Shown here: piece after piece, positions 1,717-42,672 of the stretch
Numbering within the stretch: position 1 is the stretch's first letter
Layout: every line of letters begins with the position of its first letter
Assembly: GCA_038916785.1 (NCBI GenBank)
Contig: JBCLBO010000002.1
Span: 21,085 to 85,084, forward strand
Length of the DNA: 64,000 bases
DNA from: Candidatus Hydrogenedentales bacterium
GTDB taxonomy: Bacteria; Hydrogenedentota; Hydrogenedentia; Hydrogenedentales; GCA-2746185
Direction of reading: 5' to 3'
The notes under the pieces: model-generated
The model's database searches: none
Told to the model about the DNA's origin: nothing
The model's input: only the letters and a program-made list of their open reading frames with translations
Made by a program: the position numbers and the translations under genes

Positions 1717-2586
1717 TCAATGGGTGCGGCGATTTTGATCTGTATTATCCAATACCTCCAATCCAAACCTGTAATGATATTTTATCCAATCATTGACTCC
1801 CCGTGCATGGCCCTCGAGTCCCGGAAAGAGACTCGAGGGGAAAATCGCCATTCTCCTCAGATCGGTCATTATGTCGTAGTGAAGCTTTCGCGGTATCACT
1901 ATCTTCAGAATCTGCGCTTCCGAAACTTCAGTTAGAGATGCTCGTAGATTCGTGTCAAAAGTTCGGTCGATTCTCCCAGGCACGAGGTACAGCGCCTGTT
2001 GTGCGCGCTCGCGGGCGTGTGGTCGGCCGGAATTCATCCACCAAACACATTCGTGGCGATTTTGGTAGAAAATCTCCCTGAATTTTGTACCGACAAGAGA
2101 TCCTACTTTGTCAACGTGGATTGACTCTCCTTCATTGTACTGAGGAATAAACACATCGTTCACAAAATGCGATTGAAGAGTAAACCGATTGACAGCCCAC
2201 ACTACGGAGTCGGATCGCGCATCACGTACGGCGAAGTAGGTCGCTACATAAGGAGACTCGGTGAAGTCCAGCAGGCGTGTCGGCCCACCGAAGTGTTGAA
2301 GCAGCGCGAGCGCCTCAAAGTCGTTTCGCGGCGATTCGCTAGTCGACAGATAGTGGTGTAGGTAGAGTTTGAATACGTCTAGCGATTGATTCTCGATTAT
2401 CGGTTCGAAGTTTCTCAAATTCGCATCGGGCTCATCGAATGCCCGTTCGAGAGTAGTCCTCAATCCCCATTCGGCCTGCGTTTGGCCACGAAAGACCCAC
2501 AAGTATCCAAATCGGTCGAACGCATTTCGAAGCTCTTCCCAGCTCTTTATTCGCAGTTCCGGGTATGGTGATCCGGGGTTGGTCAT
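1717..2586 (-). CDS. FRG-domain protein (function unknown)
   Basis: 289-aa ORF. The N-terminal YLWVFRGQTQAEWGL matches the (F/Y)RG signature of the FRG domain family. The gene is visibly AT-richer than its neighbours and converges on uvrB with a 22-nt gap. Confidence 0.6.
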   Translation of the reverse strand: MTNPGSPYPELRIKSWEELRNAFDRFGYLWVFRGQTQAEWGLRTTLERAFDEPDANLRNFEPIIENQSLDVFKLYLHHYLSTSESPRNDFEALALLQHFGGPTRLLDFTESPYVATYFAVRDARSDSVVWAVNRFTLQSHFVNDVFIPQYNEGESIHVDKVGSLVGTKFREIFYQNRHECVWWMNSGRPHARERAQQALYLVPGRIDRTFDTNLRASLTEVSEAQILKIVIPRKLHYDIMTDLRRMAIFPSSLFPGLEGHARGVNDWIKYHYRFGLEVLDNTDQNRRTH

Positions 2587-2654
2587 GATCTTGTCTCCGT
2601 AAGTCTAATAATCCCAATAACTTAGCAGTATTATAATAAAATTCACGTCCTGAC

Positions 2655-2681
2655 TAAAGTTTTCACTAAAGTTGCCGATAA
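2655..2681 (+). promoter_or_regulatory. Sigma-28 (FliA/SigD) class promoter
   Basis: TAAAGTTT (2655-2662), an 11-nt spacer, then GCCGATAA (2674-2681). This is an exact match to the TAAAGTTT-N11-GCCGATAA consensus, oriented toward the flagellin gene. Confidence 0.6.
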
Positions 2682-2689
2682 AGAACCCA

Positions 2690-3150
2690 GTTAGGCGGGA
2701 AGCCGTCTACGGGGAAACAGTTGAAGGGGACCGGGCACGGATGCCCGGGAAGAACCAACCGCAAGCGCAAGACGGTGAACTGGAGGCTCGCCGGGGCGGA
2801 TGGAGGCAAGACTGTAGTAAACGGGGGCACGCCCGGCCGGCATCGGCGAGGCGGGTCATCGTCTGTCCAGCATCGCGCGCGGTGGAAACCGGCGCGATGC
2901 GACATGAGGAGCGCGCGGGCAGTCCGCGCGCGTGGCCGAACCGGGGAAACCGGGCATCGGCCGGACGGATGAAGACCGCTGCCGCCACGAACATATCGCG
3001 CAGGGGGATCCACGCTGTATTCGGTGGCTCGGGACTGATGTTCCGGGTCGCCGCGAAGTTGTATATGTGCCCCGGGACGGGACTGGGGCGATGACCGTGG
3101 CGCACGGATTGCGCTACGGAACCGGAACGTAATTCTAAGGAGGATGTGTC
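2690..3150 (+). promoter_or_regulatory. Long GC-rich structured 5' leader of fliC, or an independent sigma-28-dependent ncRNA
   Basis: About 460 nt between the sigma-28 promoter and the fliC ATG. The stretch is open in several frames on both strands, but the translations are Arg/Gly/Pro nonsense. Strong local hairpins lie at 2731-2748 (loop CGGA), 2871-2899 (loop GGAA), 2911-2931 and 2935-2961 (loop GGAAA). The SD is AAGGAGGA, preceded by ACGGAACCGGAAC. Confidence 0.45.
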
Positions 3151-3972
3151 ATGGGATTAGTTGTCAATACGAATGTCGCGGCGATCAACACGAGCCGCAT
3201 TTTGCGTCGGTCCATGTTGGACTTGAACAAGTCACTGGAGCGCCTGTCCAGCGGCTTGCGAATCAACCGAGCGGCCGATGACGCCGCAGGGCTCACGATC
3301 GCGGAAGGTCTGCGCTCGCAGGTCAAGGGCTTTCAGGTCGTCCAGCGAAACGCGCAGGACGGCATCAGCCTCCTGCAGACCGCCGAAGGCGCGCTCAGCG
3401 ACGTTACCGCAGTCCTACAGCGCATCCGCGAACTCGCGGTGCAGTCGGCCAGCGGCACGCTGCAGGACACCCCCAACCGGACCGACATCAACGCAGAGTC
3501 GATTGAGTTGATCGCCACCATAAACGAAATCCTCGTCCGGACGACGTTCAACGGCATCAACCCCTTCGGCGCGGCGGCCGTGACTATCCAGACCGGCGTG
3601 CTCAACACGCAGACGACCGTTCTGGCCGGCACGGGCTCGATCATCAGCACCACCACGCTGGGCATCAACGCCCTCGTGATCAACACGCAAGCCAGCGCCG
3701 CCACCGCCCTGACTACACTGGACACCGCGATGGCGGCCGTGAACACCCGCCGCGCCAACCTCGGTGCCGCGCAGAACCGCCTCGAATTCACCATCAACCA
3801 GCTCGGCATCCGCGAAGAAAACGCCGCGGCCGCCGAGAGCCGTATCCGCGATGCGGACATCGCAAAGGAAACGATCGCGTTCACGCGCAACCAGATTCTG
3901 GTCAGCGCGGGCACCTCGATCCTGGCGCAAGCCAACATCGTGCCGCAGACTGCCCTTCAGCTCCTGCGGTAA
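3151..3972 (+). CDS. fliC: Flagellin
   Basis: The conserved flagellin terminal segments are present: N-terminal MGLVVNTNVAAINTSR...LSSGLRINRAADDAAGLTIAEGL and C-terminal ANLGAAQNRLEFTINQL...ILAQANIVPQTALQLLR. A strong SD lies upstream. At 273 aa it has no large variable domain. Confidence 0.95.
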   Translation: MGLVVNTNVAAINTSRILRRSMLDLNKSLERLSSGLRINRAADDAAGLTIAEGLRSQVKGFQVVQRNAQDGISLLQTAEGALSDVTAVLQRIRELAVQSASGTLQDTPNRTDINAESIELIATINEILVRTTFNGINPFGAAAVTIQTGVLNTQTTVLAGTGSIISTTTLGINALVINTQASAATALTTLDTAMAAVNTRRANLGAAQNRLEFTINQLGIREENAAAAESRIRDADIAKETIAFTRNQILVSAGTSILAQANIVPQTALQLLR

Positions 3973-3998: not shown

Positions 3999-4316
3999 AT
4001 GGAAATCGGCGGCGCAATACGGCAGTCGGCGAACCCGCCCGAAGCCGCTAGTGCGCCGCCGCCTCCAGCGGCGACCGCGTCGGCCCGTGCCGAAGCGGTG
4101 TCTCGCAGGCTCGTCGAGGCGCTGGCCAGAAAAGCCGCCGAGAACACGCGCGGCGGCGGCTCGAAGATTCGCGTGGATGAAGCGACCGATCGCATCGTTG
4201 TCCAGATTCTGAATGCGAACGGGGAGGTGATCAAGCAGATTCCACCCGAGGAACTCTTGCGCGCGATCGCCAAGTCACGCGAAGTGACGGGGCTGATCTT
4301 CGACCAGCAGACCTAA
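3999..4316 (+). CDS. flaG: FlaG-family flagellar protein
   Basis: 105 aa. The C-terminal DRIVVQILNANGEVIKQIPPEELL resembles the FlaG core. It lies immediately downstream of flagellin, the usual flaG position. Confidence 0.7.
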   Translation: MEIGGAIRQSANPPEAASAPPPPAATASARAEAVSRRLVEALARKAAENTRGGGSKIRVDEATDRIVVQILNANGEVIKQIPPEELLRAIAKSREVTGLIFDQQT

Positions 4317-4334
4317 CCCGAATCGATACACACG

Positions 4335-4366
4335 GCAGCCCGGAGCGCGAATACGCTCCGGGCTGC
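4335..4366 (+). terminator. Stem-loop terminator after fliC-flaG
   Basis: Perfect 13-bp stem GCAGCCCGGAGCG / CGCTCCGGGCTGC with a 6-nt loop, followed by a weak T-containing tail (GTTCTGTCTGT). Confidence 0.6.
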
Positions 4367-31766: not shown

Positions 31767-32020
31767 GGCCCGATCATACACGTTCGTTCCTCCAACGGAT
31801 TTGAAACAGTATAGGTGGAGCCGCGTAGAAGTGCGATCCAAATGAAAACTGAAGGAAGTCGGGTGAACGTAGTAGCGTTTGTTAACAGTTTTGCTCGAAG
31901 CCCCCCGCACAAGCGTACGGATTGACATACAGGGCACAGTAATGTACAGTTAGATCGCGGTTGAGAGGGCCTCCTAACGGTTCGCTGGACGCAAGTCCAC
32001 TCGGCTGCATTGAATTCCCC

Positions 32021-32827
32021 ATGTACCTGCTCTATCTCGACGACGCAGGATCCGCCCCCAATCCCAACGAGGCATACTTCGTTTTGGGTGGCATCGCGGT
32101 TTATGAAACGCAAACCGATTGGTTTGCGCGCGAGATGGATCGACGTGCTTCAGACGTCAATAGCTCGAACCCCCAAAGCATCGAGTTCCACGCTTCCGAG
32201 ATTTACTCCGGGCGAGACGCGCCTTGGGACGCCATGTCGAAGGAAGATCGACGCGGTGTAATAAAATCCGTCCTCCGTGTAGTAAATGAATCTTACGAAA
32301 CCGCACGAACATTCGCTTGCGCTGTTCATAAGACATCGTACCCTGGACGAGATCCGGTCGAGATGGCTTTTGAAGACATTTGTAGTCGATTTGATCGTTT
32401 TCTGAGTCGTGTGCGAAACGAAGGCCACCGCGAACGCGGAATCATAATCTTTGACGAGAGCACGCACGAGACAGCGATTCAGCAAATGGCCAGAGACTTT
32501 CGTGCGCTGGGCACGCGATGGGGCAGCATTCGAAATCTCGCCGAAACACCGCTGTTCGTAGATTCTAGGGCGTCTCGCTTAGTGCAGGTCGCCGATCATA
32601 TCGCGTATGCGGTTTTTCGTCGATACAATGCCTCAGACACTCAGTATTTTGACATTTTCGCCCAACGTTTCGACGCGATGAACGGAGTTATACATGGTCT
32701 CGCGCACAAGCAGTTGGTCGATCCGAATTGCTTGTGCCCGGCGTGTTTGTCACGGCGGTTGGGACAGCCACGAGAGAACGACGATCAGCAATCTCTAAAC
32801 ATCCCCGACGGTCCCGCCGGCACATAG
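32021..32827 (+). CDS. DUF3800-family protein
   Basis: Start chosen at MYLLYLDDAGS (the YxDESG-like N-terminus of DUF3800). A C-terminal LVQVADHIAYAV motif is present. The gene is an AT-richer single-gene insert. Confidence 0.6.
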   Translation: MYLLYLDDAGSAPNPNEAYFVLGGIAVYETQTDWFAREMDRRASDVNSSNPQSIEFHASEIYSGRDAPWDAMSKEDRRGVIKSVLRVVNESYETARTFACAVHKTSYPGRDPVEMAFEDICSRFDRFLSRVRNEGHRERGIIIFDESTHETAIQQMARDFRALGTRWGSIRNLAETPLFVDSRASRLVQVADHIAYAVFRRYNASDTQYFDIFAQRFDAMNGVIHGLAHKQLVDPNCLCPACLSRRLGQPRENDDQQSLNIPDGPAGT

Positions 32828-35521: not shown

Positions 35522-37450
35522 ATGTTTGCGCTGGCCATTTACACGCTCGCGTTCACGCTGGGGCAGACCGTCGAAGTGCGCCTGGCGCCCGACCAGCCTG
35601 CGCCGCTCTTTTTCATCGACGAGCCGCTCGTGGTCCAGGTGCGCGCCGACGCGGCGACCTCTGTCGCGCTGGACATCGAAGTCGATCTGCCGGACGGGCG
35701 CCGCGCCACATGGAAGCCGGGGCCGCTGGCGCTCTCGCCGGGCCGTGCGCAGTGGCTCACGATGGATGGCCTGCCCGCGCTGCGCGGCCCGCACGTGTTT
35801 CACATCCACACCGCGCCGGACGCCGATCCCGTGGAGCGCACGCTCGCACGCATCGATCGGCCCGCGCCGGGAGGAGAGGCGTCGATCGTACTCGCGATCG
35901 CGTCGCCCTCGCCCGCGGCCCGCTACGCCGCGCAATGTATCGGCGCGGGCATCCAGTTTCCGCTCGAATGGCCGGCACTCGACGCGGAAGTCACCGCGTT
36001 CGCGCATCCGGATCGCGGCCCAATTTATGTTCAGATCACTGCATCCGGAGGCCGGCATCCGCGTAGCGTCGCGGCGACCGTCGCGGCGCTGGCTGGGCGC
36101 GTGGATATTTGGACGGTGAAGGGCGCGATCAGCCCGCGCGAATCGATCCGCGAAAGCACCGCCGCCCAGGGCGCCGATCCCGGCGCCGCATGGGCCCCAC
36201 GCGTCGCTGAGGCGCGCGAGGTGGCCGGGTTGGTCGAGCGTGGCGGCGCGCGCATTCCAGACGCCCTCATCGCCGCGCCGGAGGCCGCAGCAGCGATCGC
36301 CGGCGCAGCGGCGCGCGCCGGGTTCGAGCGGATGCCGCTCATTCTCGATCTGGCGGATGACCCCACCTCGGTCTCGCTGCCGGGATTGCTCACTCGTCTG
36401 ATGACCGGGGGACTCGGCCCTGGCCGTGTGGCATTGGTTCCCCAGGGTCTACTCGAGACACCGGAGGGGTTTTCCGGTGCGCTGGCGGTGCTCGCGGCCA
36501 CGCGCCGGCAGCTTGCCGATGCCCAGAGTCTCGGCGTGTTCGCCGGCGCCGGAGAAAACACCGTGTGGATCCTGCGGCTCGGTCCTTCAGCCGCGCCGGA
36601 CACCTGGGCGCTGGTCGCCGCAGTGCCCGATCCAACCGCGACCCTGCCCGCGATCCTGCCGGGCGACGGCGCGGAGTGGGACGTGCTCGATGCCTACGGC
36701 AATTCGCTGGGCGACTTTGGCCGACCCGGCGGCCGCGTCGCGTTTCCCGCCGGTGCCGGCGCGTGGTACGCGCGCGGACACGGCGGCACCCTGCTGAGGG
36801 AAGCGCTCGCGGCGCGGGTGCGTGCGCTGGCCAGCGCCGCAATGAGCTATGAAGGCGAGCTGGCCACCGCGGCCTCGGAGACGGCCGGCGCGCTCGAGGT
36901 GCTCGCGCGCTACGAGTTGCCCGCGCCCTCCCGCCTGCAATTCTTCGCGTTGCTCCGGGCGCTACCGGCAATCGAGGAGAGCTGGCGGCGCGGCCTTCTG
37001 GAGACGCGCGACGCGATTCCCATGACGCGCGATCTCGCGGCGATCGCCGAGGCGCTGGCCATTCTCGAACAGGAACTCGACGAATCCCTGCTCGAGCCGC
37101 TGGACAACACCCTCGACACTTGCGCTGAGTGGATCGCACGGTATCCGAGCGCCTCTGGGGACGATCCGCGGGATGCCAATCGGATAGCATTTCTACGCGG
37201 CGAGGTCCTTCGCCTGGCGGACCGCGCGCGGGCCTGGGCATCGGCCGGGCGGATGACGGAGGCAAAATCCGTCGCGGCGATTGCCGAGTGGCGCGCGCGG
37301 AGTCTGGAGGCCGCGGCGACGATTCCCTGGCCGGAAAATGCGGAAGACTCCGCGATTGACGAACCGGCGGCGCCGGATGAATCGAGCGAGGACGGGCAAT
37401 CGCCAGACGCGGAACCGGAATTGGAAACGGAAGCGGAGGTGGACGAATGA
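35522..37450 (+). CDS. Hypothetical 642-aa protein with acidic C-terminal tail
   Basis: Longest ORF with a protein-like composition in this stretch. It starts 7 nt after the MBL-gene stop, and its stop overlaps the pfkA ATG (ATGA). I recognise no motifs. Confidence 0.55.
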   Translation: MFALAIYTLAFTLGQTVEVRLAPDQPAPLFFIDEPLVVQVRADAATSVALDIEVDLPDGRRATWKPGPLALSPGRAQWLTMDGLPALRGPHVFHIHTAPDADPVERTLARIDRPAPGGEASIVLAIASPSPAARYAAQCIGAGIQFPLEWPALDAEVTAFAHPDRGPIYVQITASGGRHPRSVAATVAALAGRVDIWTVKGAISPRESIRESTAAQGADPGAAWAPRVAEAREVAGLVERGGARIPDALIAAPEAAAAIAGAAARAGFERMPLILDLADDPTSVSLPGLLTRLMTGGLGPGRVALVPQGLLETPEGFSGALAVLAATRRQLADAQSLGVFAGAGENTVWILRLGPSAAPDTWALVAAVPDPTATLPAILPGDGAEWDVLDAYGNSLGDFGRPGGRVAFPAGAGAWYARGHGGTLLREALAARVRALASAAMSYEGELATAASETAGALEVLARYELPAPSRLQFFALLRALPAIEESWRRGLLETRDAIPMTRDLAAIAEALAILEQELDESLLEPLDNTLDTCAEWIARYPSASGDDPRDANRIAFLRGEVLRLADRARAWASAGRMTEAKSVAAIAEWRARSLEAAATIPWPENAEDSAIDEPAAPDESSEDGQSPDAEPELETEAEVDE

Positions 37451-38418
37451 AACGAATCGGCGTACTGACCAGCGGGGGCGACTCGCCCGGCATGAACGCG
37501 GGCATCCGCGCGGTGGTCCGCGCGGCCGGCCACTACGGTATGAGCGTGCACGGCATTCGCCACGGCTACCAGGGCCTGATCGACGGCGACATCGTCCCCA
37601 TGGGCCCGCGCGATGTCGGCGGGATCATCAACCGTGGCGGAACCATCCTGCGTACTGCGCGCTGCAAGGATTTTTTCGAGCCCGAAGGCCGCAAGCGCGC
37701 CGCCGCCGCGCTCGAGGCCTTCGGCATCGAAGGCCTCGTCGTTATCGGTGGAGATGGCTCCTATCGCGGAGCGCTAGCGCTCGAACAGGAGCACGGGATC
37801 CGGTGCATCGGGATGCCCGGCACCATCGACAACGACATCGGCGGCACGGACTTCACCATCGGATTCGACACCGCGCTCAACACGGCGCTCGAGGCCATCG
37901 ACCGCCTGCGAGACACGGCGGAGTCGCACGATCGCATTTTCTACGTCGAGGTGATGGGCCGGCGCAACGGGTTCATCGCCATGTTCAGCGCCATCGCCGG
38001 CGGCGCGGAGTGGGTGCTCGTTCCCGAAGTCCCCACGGACATCGATGAACTGGTCCGCGGCCTGGACCGGGCGCATTTGCGCGGCAAGCGATCGAGCGTC
38101 ATCGTCGTCGCCGAGGGCGGCGACGCCGGCGACGCCGCCACGATCGCCAAGAAGGTCGCCGAGCGCTCGGCCTTCAAGGAGTACCGGGTCACGGTCATCG
38201 GCCATCTCCAGCGCGGCGGATCGCCGACCGCCTTCGACCGAATTCTGGCTGGCCGACTCGGCGTGCGCGCGGTGCAAGCACTGGCAGAGGGCCAGAGTGG
38301 TCTAATGACAGGCGTGGATGGCCGCGATGTGGTGCTCCGGCCGTTTTCGGACGCCTGGGAAGTACCGTCACGCTTCAATCCGGATTACACGAAATTGATG
38401 CAAATCCTTGCCCTATAA
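37447..38418 (+). CDS. pfkA: ATP-dependent 6-phosphofructokinase
   Basis: [67 protein letters not shown]. Confidence 0.95.
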   Translation: [323 protein letters not shown]

Positions 38419-42201: not shown

Positions 42202-42672
42202 GTCTCGATCACTCCAATTTCGATCACGCGATTCACGGGCGGCGCGCACGTCGTCCACACCACCATGATCCTTTGCCCCGGAGGGGCATCCGACAGTAGC
42301 CCGCCGTTTCAACGGCGGGTAAGGACCGAGACAATTTCCAGTCCCGTAGGGACGGCTGAACCCGCGATTCCTCCGGCTCAGCCGTCCCTACAGGACTCCA
42401 GATTTTGAAGTGGCCCTGACCCGGCGATGAATCGCCGGGCTATTGTCAATTGTCCCTCCGGGACAATCAAGAATGCGCACTCGGCGCCAGACCAGACCGC
42501 GTAGACAGCGTTTCTTCCTGCGGCATCCCGAAGATCGGACTTGATCGTGACCGACGCCTCCGACACAAAAAGCCACCCCTAAGCTTTCGCCTAGAGGTGG
42601 CGCCTAGTCCTCACTCTATAGATCGTCGGCGATGTCAACGCATGGGCGGGCCGCCCATGCTACGTCGCGGTC

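Follow-up and report, generated by a model that had tools for sequence, protein, structure and literature searches.

The question raised by this locus is what fills the unusually long interval between a flagellin gene and its promoter. The 64,000-nt stretch of DNA analysed here, called the window below, comes from a Candidatus Hydrogenedentales bacterium (assembly GCA_038916785.1, contig JBCLBO010000002.1) and carries a flagellin gene at 3151-3972 on the + strand, coding for 273 aa with Pfam matches to Flagellin_N (9e-40) and Flagellin_C (7e-23). A promoter of the sigma-28 (FliA/SigD) type lies 469 nt upstream of its start codon. We read the region in between, the predicted 5′ leader of the flagellin mRNA (2688-3150, + strand), as a modular leader with multiple sites for the protein CsrA, a variant of the type known from hag and flaA, and we put the probability of this reading at roughly 0.55.

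The promoter matches the sigma-28 consensus exactly. It consists of a −35 element TAAAGTTT at 2655-2662, an 11-nt spacer and a −10 element GCCGATAA at 2674-2681 on the + strand, and it is the sole sigma-28-like site in the 64 kb when up to three mismatches are allowed, so that the textbook promoter named in a preliminary description of this DNA stands. The predicted transcription start site (TSS) follows the −10 element at a distance of 7-9 nt, at about 2688-2690. The same description saw no other promoter nearer the ATG, and we likewise found no sigma-70-like site (+ strand) and no terminator-like site between the sigma-28 box and the ATG, nor any internal sigma-28-like box or run of at least four T inside the leader. 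The transcript would run without interruption from about 2688 into fliC. The promoter contains a 12-nt tandem duplication (ACTAAAGTTTTC/ACTAAAGTTGCC, 2653-2676), which places a second TAAAGTT in the spacer.

We compared the window with 16 genome loci and with metagenome loci, and the statistics given below refer to 43 leaders, or to 39 after removal of redundancy. The flagellin is 59-85 % identical to flagellins of metagenome-assembled genomes (MAGs) that are mostly labelled Hydrogenedentota, while the very nearest relatives are labelled Nitrospirales or Rhodothermaeota and the labels are inconsistent. A look-up in public assemblies for an exact copy of the window flagellin gave no record. In the 16 genome loci the first flagellin gene is preceded by the same unusual sigma-28 box 190-690 nt upstream, whereas the sigma-28 box of the clade's other flagellin copies is of the ordinary kind and stands only about 90-110 nt before the gene. 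When metagenomes were scanned with a pattern across the promoter and the leader start, 38 loci were returned. A flagellin gene lies 200-590 nt downstream in 26 of them, and in a 27th (L080) the flagellin looks frameshifted; five others (L089, L095, L098, L101 and L108) were discarded as chance matches in AT-rich unrelated DNA. The long leader is a family trait, with about 40 loci of the clade having the promoter and a leader of 200-690 nt in common. The second TAAAG in the promoter spacer (TAAAGTTT-nnn-CTAAAGnTGCCGATAA; CTAAAGnT) is kept in all long-leader promoters and is missing from the short-leader sigma-28 promoters of other flagellin copies, suggesting that an additional regulatory site is present or that −35 elements overlap. 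Leaders can be aligned from end to end only for the window, L001 and L023, and the similarity decays fast, yet the leader design is kept in the clade despite this divergence. Near-identical flagellin and leader contigs (L001-L004, L009 and L023) are variously labelled Nitrospirales, Rhodothermaeota, Bathyarchaeia and Hydrogenedentota, and at least some of these MAGs are probably mislabelled or misbinned.

The window has a single flagellin gene, unlike eight of its relatives (L001, L011, L012, L013, L015, L018, L022 and L024), in which tandem arrays of 2-4 flagellin genes follow one long leader. None of the 45 spacers between tandem flagellin genes contains a sigma-28 box, which leaves the distal promoter as apparently the sole one of the operon. 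An operator of the form A-N-GGA ... GGAGG is present in 36 of the 45 spacers. Together, the missing boxes and the separate operators point to polycistronic transcription with translational control of each gene.

The leader itself is GC-rich (0.66-0.70, compared with 0.43 in the promoter region just upstream), and over the 469-nt interval G exceeds C (183 vs 126) and A exceeds T (98 vs 62). Open reading frames (ORFs) span it on both strands. The preliminary description, which had remarked on both properties, proposed a non-coding sequence under constraint, and our results bear this out. The leader-spanning ORFs have no Pfam match, and their translations resemble those of the relatives equally weakly in the + frame (38 %) and the − frame (42 %), which is what about 70 % nucleotide identity would produce. 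In pairwise alignments of the leader with relatives, the gaps that are not multiples of three number 11 of 15 and 13 of 15. Long stop-free frames are expected from the T-poor composition (median p = 0.31, with values below 0.05 in 3 of the 43 leaders), and the open frame is inconsistent among relatives. On these grounds we rejected a protein-coding role. An origin from a repeat or mobile element was rejected as well, since we found no other copy of the leader in the window and no internal repeat array.

The fold of the leader is more stable than its composition predicts. Its minimum free energy (MFE) is −234.6 kcal/mol (z = −5.25 against dinucleotide shuffles) and the MFE structure has 12 hairpins; for the antisense strand the values are −196.4 kcal/mol and z = −4.43. 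Among the 43 leaders, 42 fold better than their own shuffles, with a summed MFE of −8067 vs −7066 kcal/mol. Two regions could be examined for covariation. In the conserved 5′ domain (2687-2822, + strand), an alignment of 9 sequences with 27 base pairs has 93.7 % of its cells paired, compared with 30-46 % when the structure is slid along the alignment, and it contains 8 compensatory pairs. The central region, comprising three hairpins, was aligned for 5 sequences with 37 pairs; 86.3 % of the cells are paired vs 36-53 % when slid, and 10 pairs are compensatory. For each region the covariation score was reached by none of 500 shuffles. Read from the opposite strand, the covarying helices would have A-C mismatches in place of their G-U pairs, which identifies the + strand as the RNA. 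All four hairpins named in the preliminary description are part of the MFE fold and are conserved in relatives.

A covariance model of the 5′ domain (R1) has one match in the window, at 2687-2822 (99.5 bits), and matches in 12 loci, always directly after the sigma-28 box. Distant leaders keep the order of the modules and not the fold; the helices and sequence of the 5′ domain are retained in a subgroup of about 12 leaders. These data effectively refute the view of the leader as a GC-rich spacer without function, as a decayed gene or as the remnant of a mobile element, to which we leave only a token probability. Long open frames on both strands and the foreign-looking FRG-domain gene next to the promoter (GC about 0.50) could be cited for it. 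Against it stand the similar leader design in about 40 loci and the covarying helices, as well as the lack of protein homology, the compositional origin of the frames and the absence of copies elsewhere in the window. The GGA, GGAGG and ACAGUUGAA elements described below are moreover strand-specific and positional.

What the constraint serves is suggested by the distribution of GGA. The window leader holds 22 GGA and 4 TCC, compared with 15.5 ± 2.7 GGA in dinucleotide shuffles (22 was reached by 16 of 1000), and it is the GGA-densest 469-nt stretch of the window, where the mean is 8.1 and the maximum 22. The second densest stretch, about 36950-37570 on the + strand with 19-21 GGA per 469 nt, lies inside the ORFs 35522-37450 (+) and 36390-37505 (−), and its density is presumably an effect of coding composition. 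The 43 leaders contain 692 GGA in total, vs 522 in shuffles and 183 on the antisense strand. The difference becomes larger when structure is considered, as 161 GGA lie wholly in a hairpin loop of the MFE fold, vs 50 in shuffles and 5 in antisense. It is largest for hairpin loops of the A-N-GGA form, of which the 39 non-redundant leaders have 81 (about 2 per leader) vs 9.8 ± 2.4 in shuffles, an enrichment of about 8-fold.

The context of the loop GGA is C-A-N-GGA-N-G (57 % have A at −2 and 60 % have G at +4), and it agrees with the CsrA/RsmE core motif CANGGANG (PMC4894983). Any artefact from GNRA tetraloops is small, with 15 GNRA-type loops compared with 131 non-GNRA loops and the 81 A-N-GGA loops; in the window leader, 6 GGA loops are non-GNRA. 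The preliminary description had pointed to GGA in hairpin loops as the recognition element of CsrA. The enriched display and its sequence context support this idea, whereas two of the three loops that it named (GGAA and GGAAA) are GNRA-like and could be structural. Similarly, its estimate of about twenty GGA is close to the count of 22, but twenty sites would be an overstatement, because what is conserved per leader is about two A-N-GGA hairpins of high quality, the Shine-Dalgarno (SD) sequence and a pseudo-SD.

The positions of these elements define two modules. The A-N-GGA loop sites of the 39 leaders are distributed bimodally, 35 of the 81, spread over most leaders, lying 25-50 nt before the ATG and 22, spread over many, lying 50-100 nt from the 5′ end, mostly at about +52. 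GGAGG has two peaks as well, one being the true SD (38) and the other a pseudo-SD at +50 to +100 (22 of 39 leaders), and CA(N)GGAGG occurs no more than 25 nt from the ATG in 37 of the 39. In the window, the 3′ module comprises an SD-proximal A-N-GGA hairpin at 3095-3119 (core GCGCA-CGGAU-UGCGC, 3100-3114) of the form known as CsrA binding site 1 (BS1), with its GGA at 3106-3108, 45 nt before the ATG. It is followed by the SD region UCUAAGGAGGAUGUGUC (3134-3150), of the binding site 2 (BS2) form, with GGA at 3139 and 3142. The distance from GGA 3106 to the second element, AAGGAGGA at 3137-3144, is 33 nt. Just before this module a further hairpin (GCCCCGG-GACGGGA-CUGGGGC, 3069-3089), kept in 5 leaders, has a GGA in its loop.

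The 5′ module is built from comparable parts. A 5′-proximal A-N-GGA hairpin (CCGGGCA-CGGA-UGCCCGG, 2731-2748), with its GGA at 2739-2741 (about +52) invariant in alignments A1 and A2, is a candidate distal CsrA site. It is followed by a hairpin at 2773-2793 that presents the pseudo-SD ACUGGAGGC, with GGAGG at 2782-2786 (about +96); the GGA of the first hairpin lies 43 nt before it. The pseudo-SD hairpin is enclosed by a long-range helix of about 2755-2762 with 2794-2802, in which 5 of 8 pairs show compensatory changes; in the 5′-domain alignment, the pair 103:113 changes from AU to CG in 4 sequences. Sites 10-63 nt apart are within reach of one CsrA dimer (PMC7652899), and the spacings of 33 and 43 nt fit this range. 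The division into two operator-like modules separated by a variable spacer goes beyond the preliminary description, as does a conserved box without GGA.

This box, ACAGUUGAA, is single-stranded, lies at 2717-2725 on the + strand and is invariant in alignments A1 and A2. The 39 leaders contain 29 occurrences, vs 0.8 ± 0.8 in shuffles and 1 on the antisense strand, at fixed positions of +25-50 and/or +125-150 from the 5′ end. We rejected it as a general feature of the spacers between tandem flagellin genes, where it occurs in 1 of 45, and as a sigma-70 −35 element, because no −10 element was seen by eye at a fitting spacing in the window. It is possible that ACAGUUGAA is a processing (RNase) site or a binding site for another factor, and it resembles an AG|UU site of the RNase E type.

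A processing site would fit a different account of the locus, in which the 5′ part forms a small RNA (sRNA) of its own that depends on sigma-28 and is terminated or processed, for example at ACAGUUGAA. This RNA would act in trans, by antagonising CsrA or in another way, and flagellin would be made from a shorter mRNA, either processed or initiated separately. The 5′ domain is indeed discrete, anchored at the TSS and covarying, and the enrichment, strand specificity, single-strandedness and fixed positions of ACAGUUGAA are in keeping with such an RNA. Terminator-like elements of a hairpin plus U are also present inside the leaders of three relatives only, L021 (about +150), L099 (about +316) and L100 (about +133), after the 5′ domain or in the spacer, where they may be attenuators. 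The window leader, however, has neither a T-run nor a terminator-like site, a second sigma-28- or sigma-70-like promoter near the ATG is lacking (a weak internal sigma-28-like box occurs in 1 of the 39 leaders), and the downstream genes of tandem arrays have no sigma-28 boxes of their own. We therefore regard the separate non-coding RNA, which the preliminary description had offered as one of two options, as unlikely.

The same box could be read as part of a sensor. The 5′ domain would then be a cis-acting RNA of an undescribed class that senses a ligand or protein independently of CsrA, either in the manner of a riboswitch or through a different flagellar regulator, with ACAGUUGAA and conserved junction nucleotides as its recognition core. 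It is a multi-helix domain with covarying helices and invariant unpaired stretches (AGUUA, ACAGUUGAA and GGGGA), and ACAGUUGAA has no explanation through CsrA. Such an element would be new, as no family of Rfam 15 relevant to the leader was matched, either in an E-value scan of 2400-3400 or in a scan of the whole window at gathering scores; the former, extended to E = 10, gave only four hits, all insignificant and unrelated. The preliminary description had proposed an Rfam search of this kind. We nevertheless hold a sensor to be quite improbable, since the fold is kept only in the subgroup of about 12 leaders, which is not the pattern of a ligand-binding aptamer, the window has no apparent expression platform (a terminator or an SD-sequestering helix), and the GGA and pseudo-SD elements are better explained by binding of CsrA or the ribosome.

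More weight has to be given to the extreme 5′ end. The window leader starts with a hairpin (UAGGCGG-GAAG-CCGUCUA, 2692-2709, MFE) about 3-4 nt from the predicted 5′ end, and a hairpin lies within the first 30 nt in 38 of the 39 leaders, with differing stems and a mean MFE of −8.7 vs −4.8 in shuffles. Stabilisation of Bacillus mRNAs by STAB-SD elements and 5′ stem-loops is established. The upstream 400 nt or so could accordingly be a leader for mRNA stability or anti-termination that does not bind CsrA, with only the last 60 nt or so being a CsrA operator. The 5′ hairpin and the SD-like element would block RNases that depend on the 5′ end, through 30S binding or structure, and the G-rich, C-poor body with its many hairpins would prevent loading of Rho on a long RNA that is not translated. 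Besides the position of the 5′ hairpin, this account draws on the fact that the conserved upstream element is a full GGAGG, the SD core and not just GGA, in 22 of 39 leaders, that G>C skew and dense structure are found in all leaders, and that flagellin leaders of other phyla have a similar upstream GGAGG(U). What a pure stabiliser would not need is the hairpin at about +52, whose loop has the A-N-GGA form of BS1 and which stands 22-45 nt before the pseudo-SD, that is, in the geometry of an operator; nor would it call for the 8-fold enrichment of A-N-GGA loops overall. A leader that only stabilises is plausible, though we give it a low probability, the highest among the alternatives, and it is compatible with the CsrA-type leader, the two not being exclusive.

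The variable region between the modules is a GC-rich hairpin spacer of about 300 nt (2830-3052, + strand). Its sequence cannot be aligned beyond the subgroup, and its structure is kept in 5 alignable leaders. In the MFE fold it contains hairpins at 2830-2853, 2870-2900 (loop GGAA), 2911-2931, 2935-2961 (inner part 2941-2953, loop GGAAA), 3000-3018 (loop GGAUCCA) and 3023-3052, all on the + strand.

The attribution to CsrA draws further on loci where the protein is encoded next to flagellin. The SD-proximal pair, an A-N-GGA hairpin and a GGA over the SD, is present in every flagellin copy of the clade, whether its leader is short or long. Using tblastn, we found 7 loci of other phyla in which csrA and fliW adjoin a flagellin gene, and their leaders have the operator form GGCA(N)GGA(N)GCC ... 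AUCA(N)GGAGGA. The link to the hag and flaA operators drawn in the preliminary description is strengthened by the occurrence of this two-site form beside csrA and fliW. In Hydrogenedentota, fliW is annotated in 106 of 179 genomes (59 %), fliA in 100 of 179 and fliF in 102 of 179 (PMC11406978, supplementary file 1), and these figures indicate that flagellated members of the phylum normally have the partner-switch protein. The csrA-fliW-adjacent flagellin leaders of other phyla (L027, L036, L039, L051 and L062) are 165-220 nt long and have, besides the two-site operator, a strong SD-like GGAGGU or GGGAGG about 100-170 nt before the ATG. An upstream pseudo-SD may thus be widespread in flagellin leaders.

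Compared with the characterised leaders of the CsrA-FliW system (hag, flaA, fliC and B. burgdorferi flaB), the window leader has in common the sigma-28/SigD promoter and the succession of an A-N-GGA hairpin and a GGA over the SD 20-35 nt later (GCGCACGGAUUGCGC ... UCUAAGGAGGAU in the window). In C. difficile fliC, BS1 is TGACAAGGATGT and BS2 is CTAAGGAGGG, in a 91-nt untranslated region (UTR), and in B. subtilis hag BS1 is at A51-55 and BS2 at C75-82 (PMC8523840). The 45-nt UTR of C. jejuni flaA contains two ANGGA hexaloops at a distance of 21 nt, and this 5′UTR serves both repression and titration of CsrA (PMC4894983). The differences are in size and layout. Known leaders of this type have two sites in a length of 45 to about 100 nt, whereas that of the window has 469 nt (200-690 nt in relatives); it has the hairpin GGA and the SD GGA of the hag/flaA operator and departs from the short two-site form. 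It also has, unlike hag/flaA-type leaders, an extra domain anchored at the TSS, the ACAGUUGAA box and the hairpin spacer of about 300 nt, and neither csrA nor fliW stands beside its flagellin gene, unlike in the 7 loci of other phyla.

Other known systems resemble single aspects of the leader. The flaA mRNA, a dual-function RNA that both codes for protein and titrates CsrA, and the CsrA-titrating 5′UTR of Salmonella fimAICDHF are comparable in concept, in that an abundant late-flagellar leader would sequester CsrA (PMC4894983); flaA probably holds only one dimer on its 45-nt UTR, and the additional sites of the window are predicted from sequence only. The long leader of E. coli flhDC has a pair of CsrA sites near its 5′ end through which the mRNA is protected from RNase E (PMC7652899). 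The GGA at about +52 (2739) and about +96 (2782) are similarly placed, far from the SD and beside a 5′-terminal hairpin. In flhDC, however, there is no SD-occluding operator and CsrA is an activator only, while the window leader would have both kinds of module on one mRNA. The leaders of E. coli pgaA and iraD have six and four CsrA sites, respectively (PMC7652899). They are likewise long multi-site leaders serving more than one mechanism, with different genes and layout, and in the window leader we detected no rut-site or upstream-ORF logic of the pgaA/iraD type.

The sponge RNAs CsrB, CsrC and RsmX/Y/Z are comparable in their many GGA (22 in 469 nt here), several of them in loops, and in their strong structure; for CsrB/C, 13-22 GGA motifs have been reported (PMC6546359). 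The window leader is not a sponge of the CsrB/Rsm type. It has about 2 A-N-GGA hairpins, lacks repeated units and a terminator that would make it an independent transcript, and matches nothing in Rfam; by its promoter it would depend on sigma-28, whereas CsrB/Rsm depend on GacA/UvrY. The sponge-like leader considered in the preliminary description accordingly found no backing, either in a CsrB-like repeat array or in a match to the CsrB/Rsm families of Rfam.

From these comparisons a mechanism can be proposed for the CsrA-type leader. The 3′ module (the last 60 nt or so) would be a canonical two-site operator, formed by GGA 3106 and GGA 3139/3142 over the SD, and a single CsrA dimer bridging this pair would block ribosome binding, as in hag and flaA. 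FliW, freed on flagellin export, would relieve the block. The 5′ module (the first 135 nt or so), with its 5′ hairpin, ACAGUUGAA, A-N-GGA hairpin and GGAGG loop, would in effect repeat this operator at the 5′ end, and we infer that its pair binds a second CsrA dimer. This second dimer could couple CsrA occupancy to mRNA stability by protecting or exposing the 5′ end, comparable to the 5′-end sites of flhDC in relation to RNase E. Each flagellin transcript could moreover hold twice as much CsrA, which would extend the titration known for flaA mRNA. The spacer of about 300 nt is probably a structured element, resistant to nucleases and Rho, that offers GGA sites of low affinity; its G>C skew and dense structure would disfavour loading of Rho. 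In the relatives with tandem arrays, the leader would govern the polycistronic unit.

Several observations weigh against this reading. The GGA excess in the window leader is modest (22 vs 15.5, p about 0.016), and the leader holds only 2 hairpins of the full A-N-GGA form. Several GGA loops are of the GNRA type (GGAA and GGGA) and may be purely structural, and the loop assignments are MFE-based and hence predictions. The best-conserved single-stranded element, ACAGUUGAA, has no GGA and no rationale in terms of CsrA, and the CsrA model leaves the retention of the spacer of about 300 nt unexplained. The covariation rests on 9 and 5 sequences only. The assignment to the clade relies on the similarity of flagellin and leader to MAGs with inconsistent taxonomic labels. 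Finally, tblastn found no csrA in the window or in any of the fetched Hydrogenedentota-type loci, the same being true of fliW, and the Hydrogenedentota literature that we checked reports nothing on csrA.

Flagellin homeostasis by CsrA and FliW is regarded as the ancestral role of CsrA. In hag, the transcript, the CsrA dimer and FliW occur at about 1:1:1 (PMC6529632), a stoichiometry that would be shifted by a leader 5-10 times longer with an apparent second operator. A leader with two modules would join translational repression to mRNA stability or CsrA titration on one molecule. We found no long multi-site flagellin leader in the searchable literature. The core logic is nevertheless that of the known CsrA-flagellin circuit, and the leader would be an elaborate variant and not a new kind of system. 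The 5′ domain with ACAGUUGAA is a candidate for a new RNA motif that can be modelled and searched, and the approximately 40 natural variants of the leader offer a way of asking how many CsrA dimers one flagellin mRNA holds. A bolder extension, which we put forward only tentatively and with clear doubt, is that the 5′ domain is an undescribed RNA element making the flagellin mRNA a built-in CsrA decoy timed by sigma-28, maybe cleaved at ACAGUUGAA into an sRNA that antagonises CsrA. If true, it would be the first RNA antagonist of CsrA beside FliW outside Proteobacteria and Campylobacterota, in a phylum without a cultured model.

Regarding the surroundings of the leader, flaG follows the flagellin gene (3999-4316, + strand, Pfam), and a terminator-like hairpin after flaG, at 4335-4366, is the probable end of the fliC-flaG transcription unit. 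On the other side, a divergent FRG-domain gene (1717-2586, − strand) lies between uvrB and the flagellin promoter. Its GC content is about 0.50, compared with about 0.64 in the neighbouring genes. The gene, which is not kept in front of the leader at other loci, was probably inserted by horizontal transfer.

The Rfam scan of the whole window also recovered three matches above the gathering score in other places. A DUF3800-VI RNA motif (51.7 bits) is located at 31958-32007 on the + strand, at the start of the ORF 31961-32827. Two Acido-Lenti-1 RNA matches, at 42274-42319 on the − strand (39.7 bits) and at 42420-42465 on the + strand (44.1 bits), lie on opposite strands about 100 nt apart and flank the intergenic region between the ORFs that end or start near 42312 and 42450.

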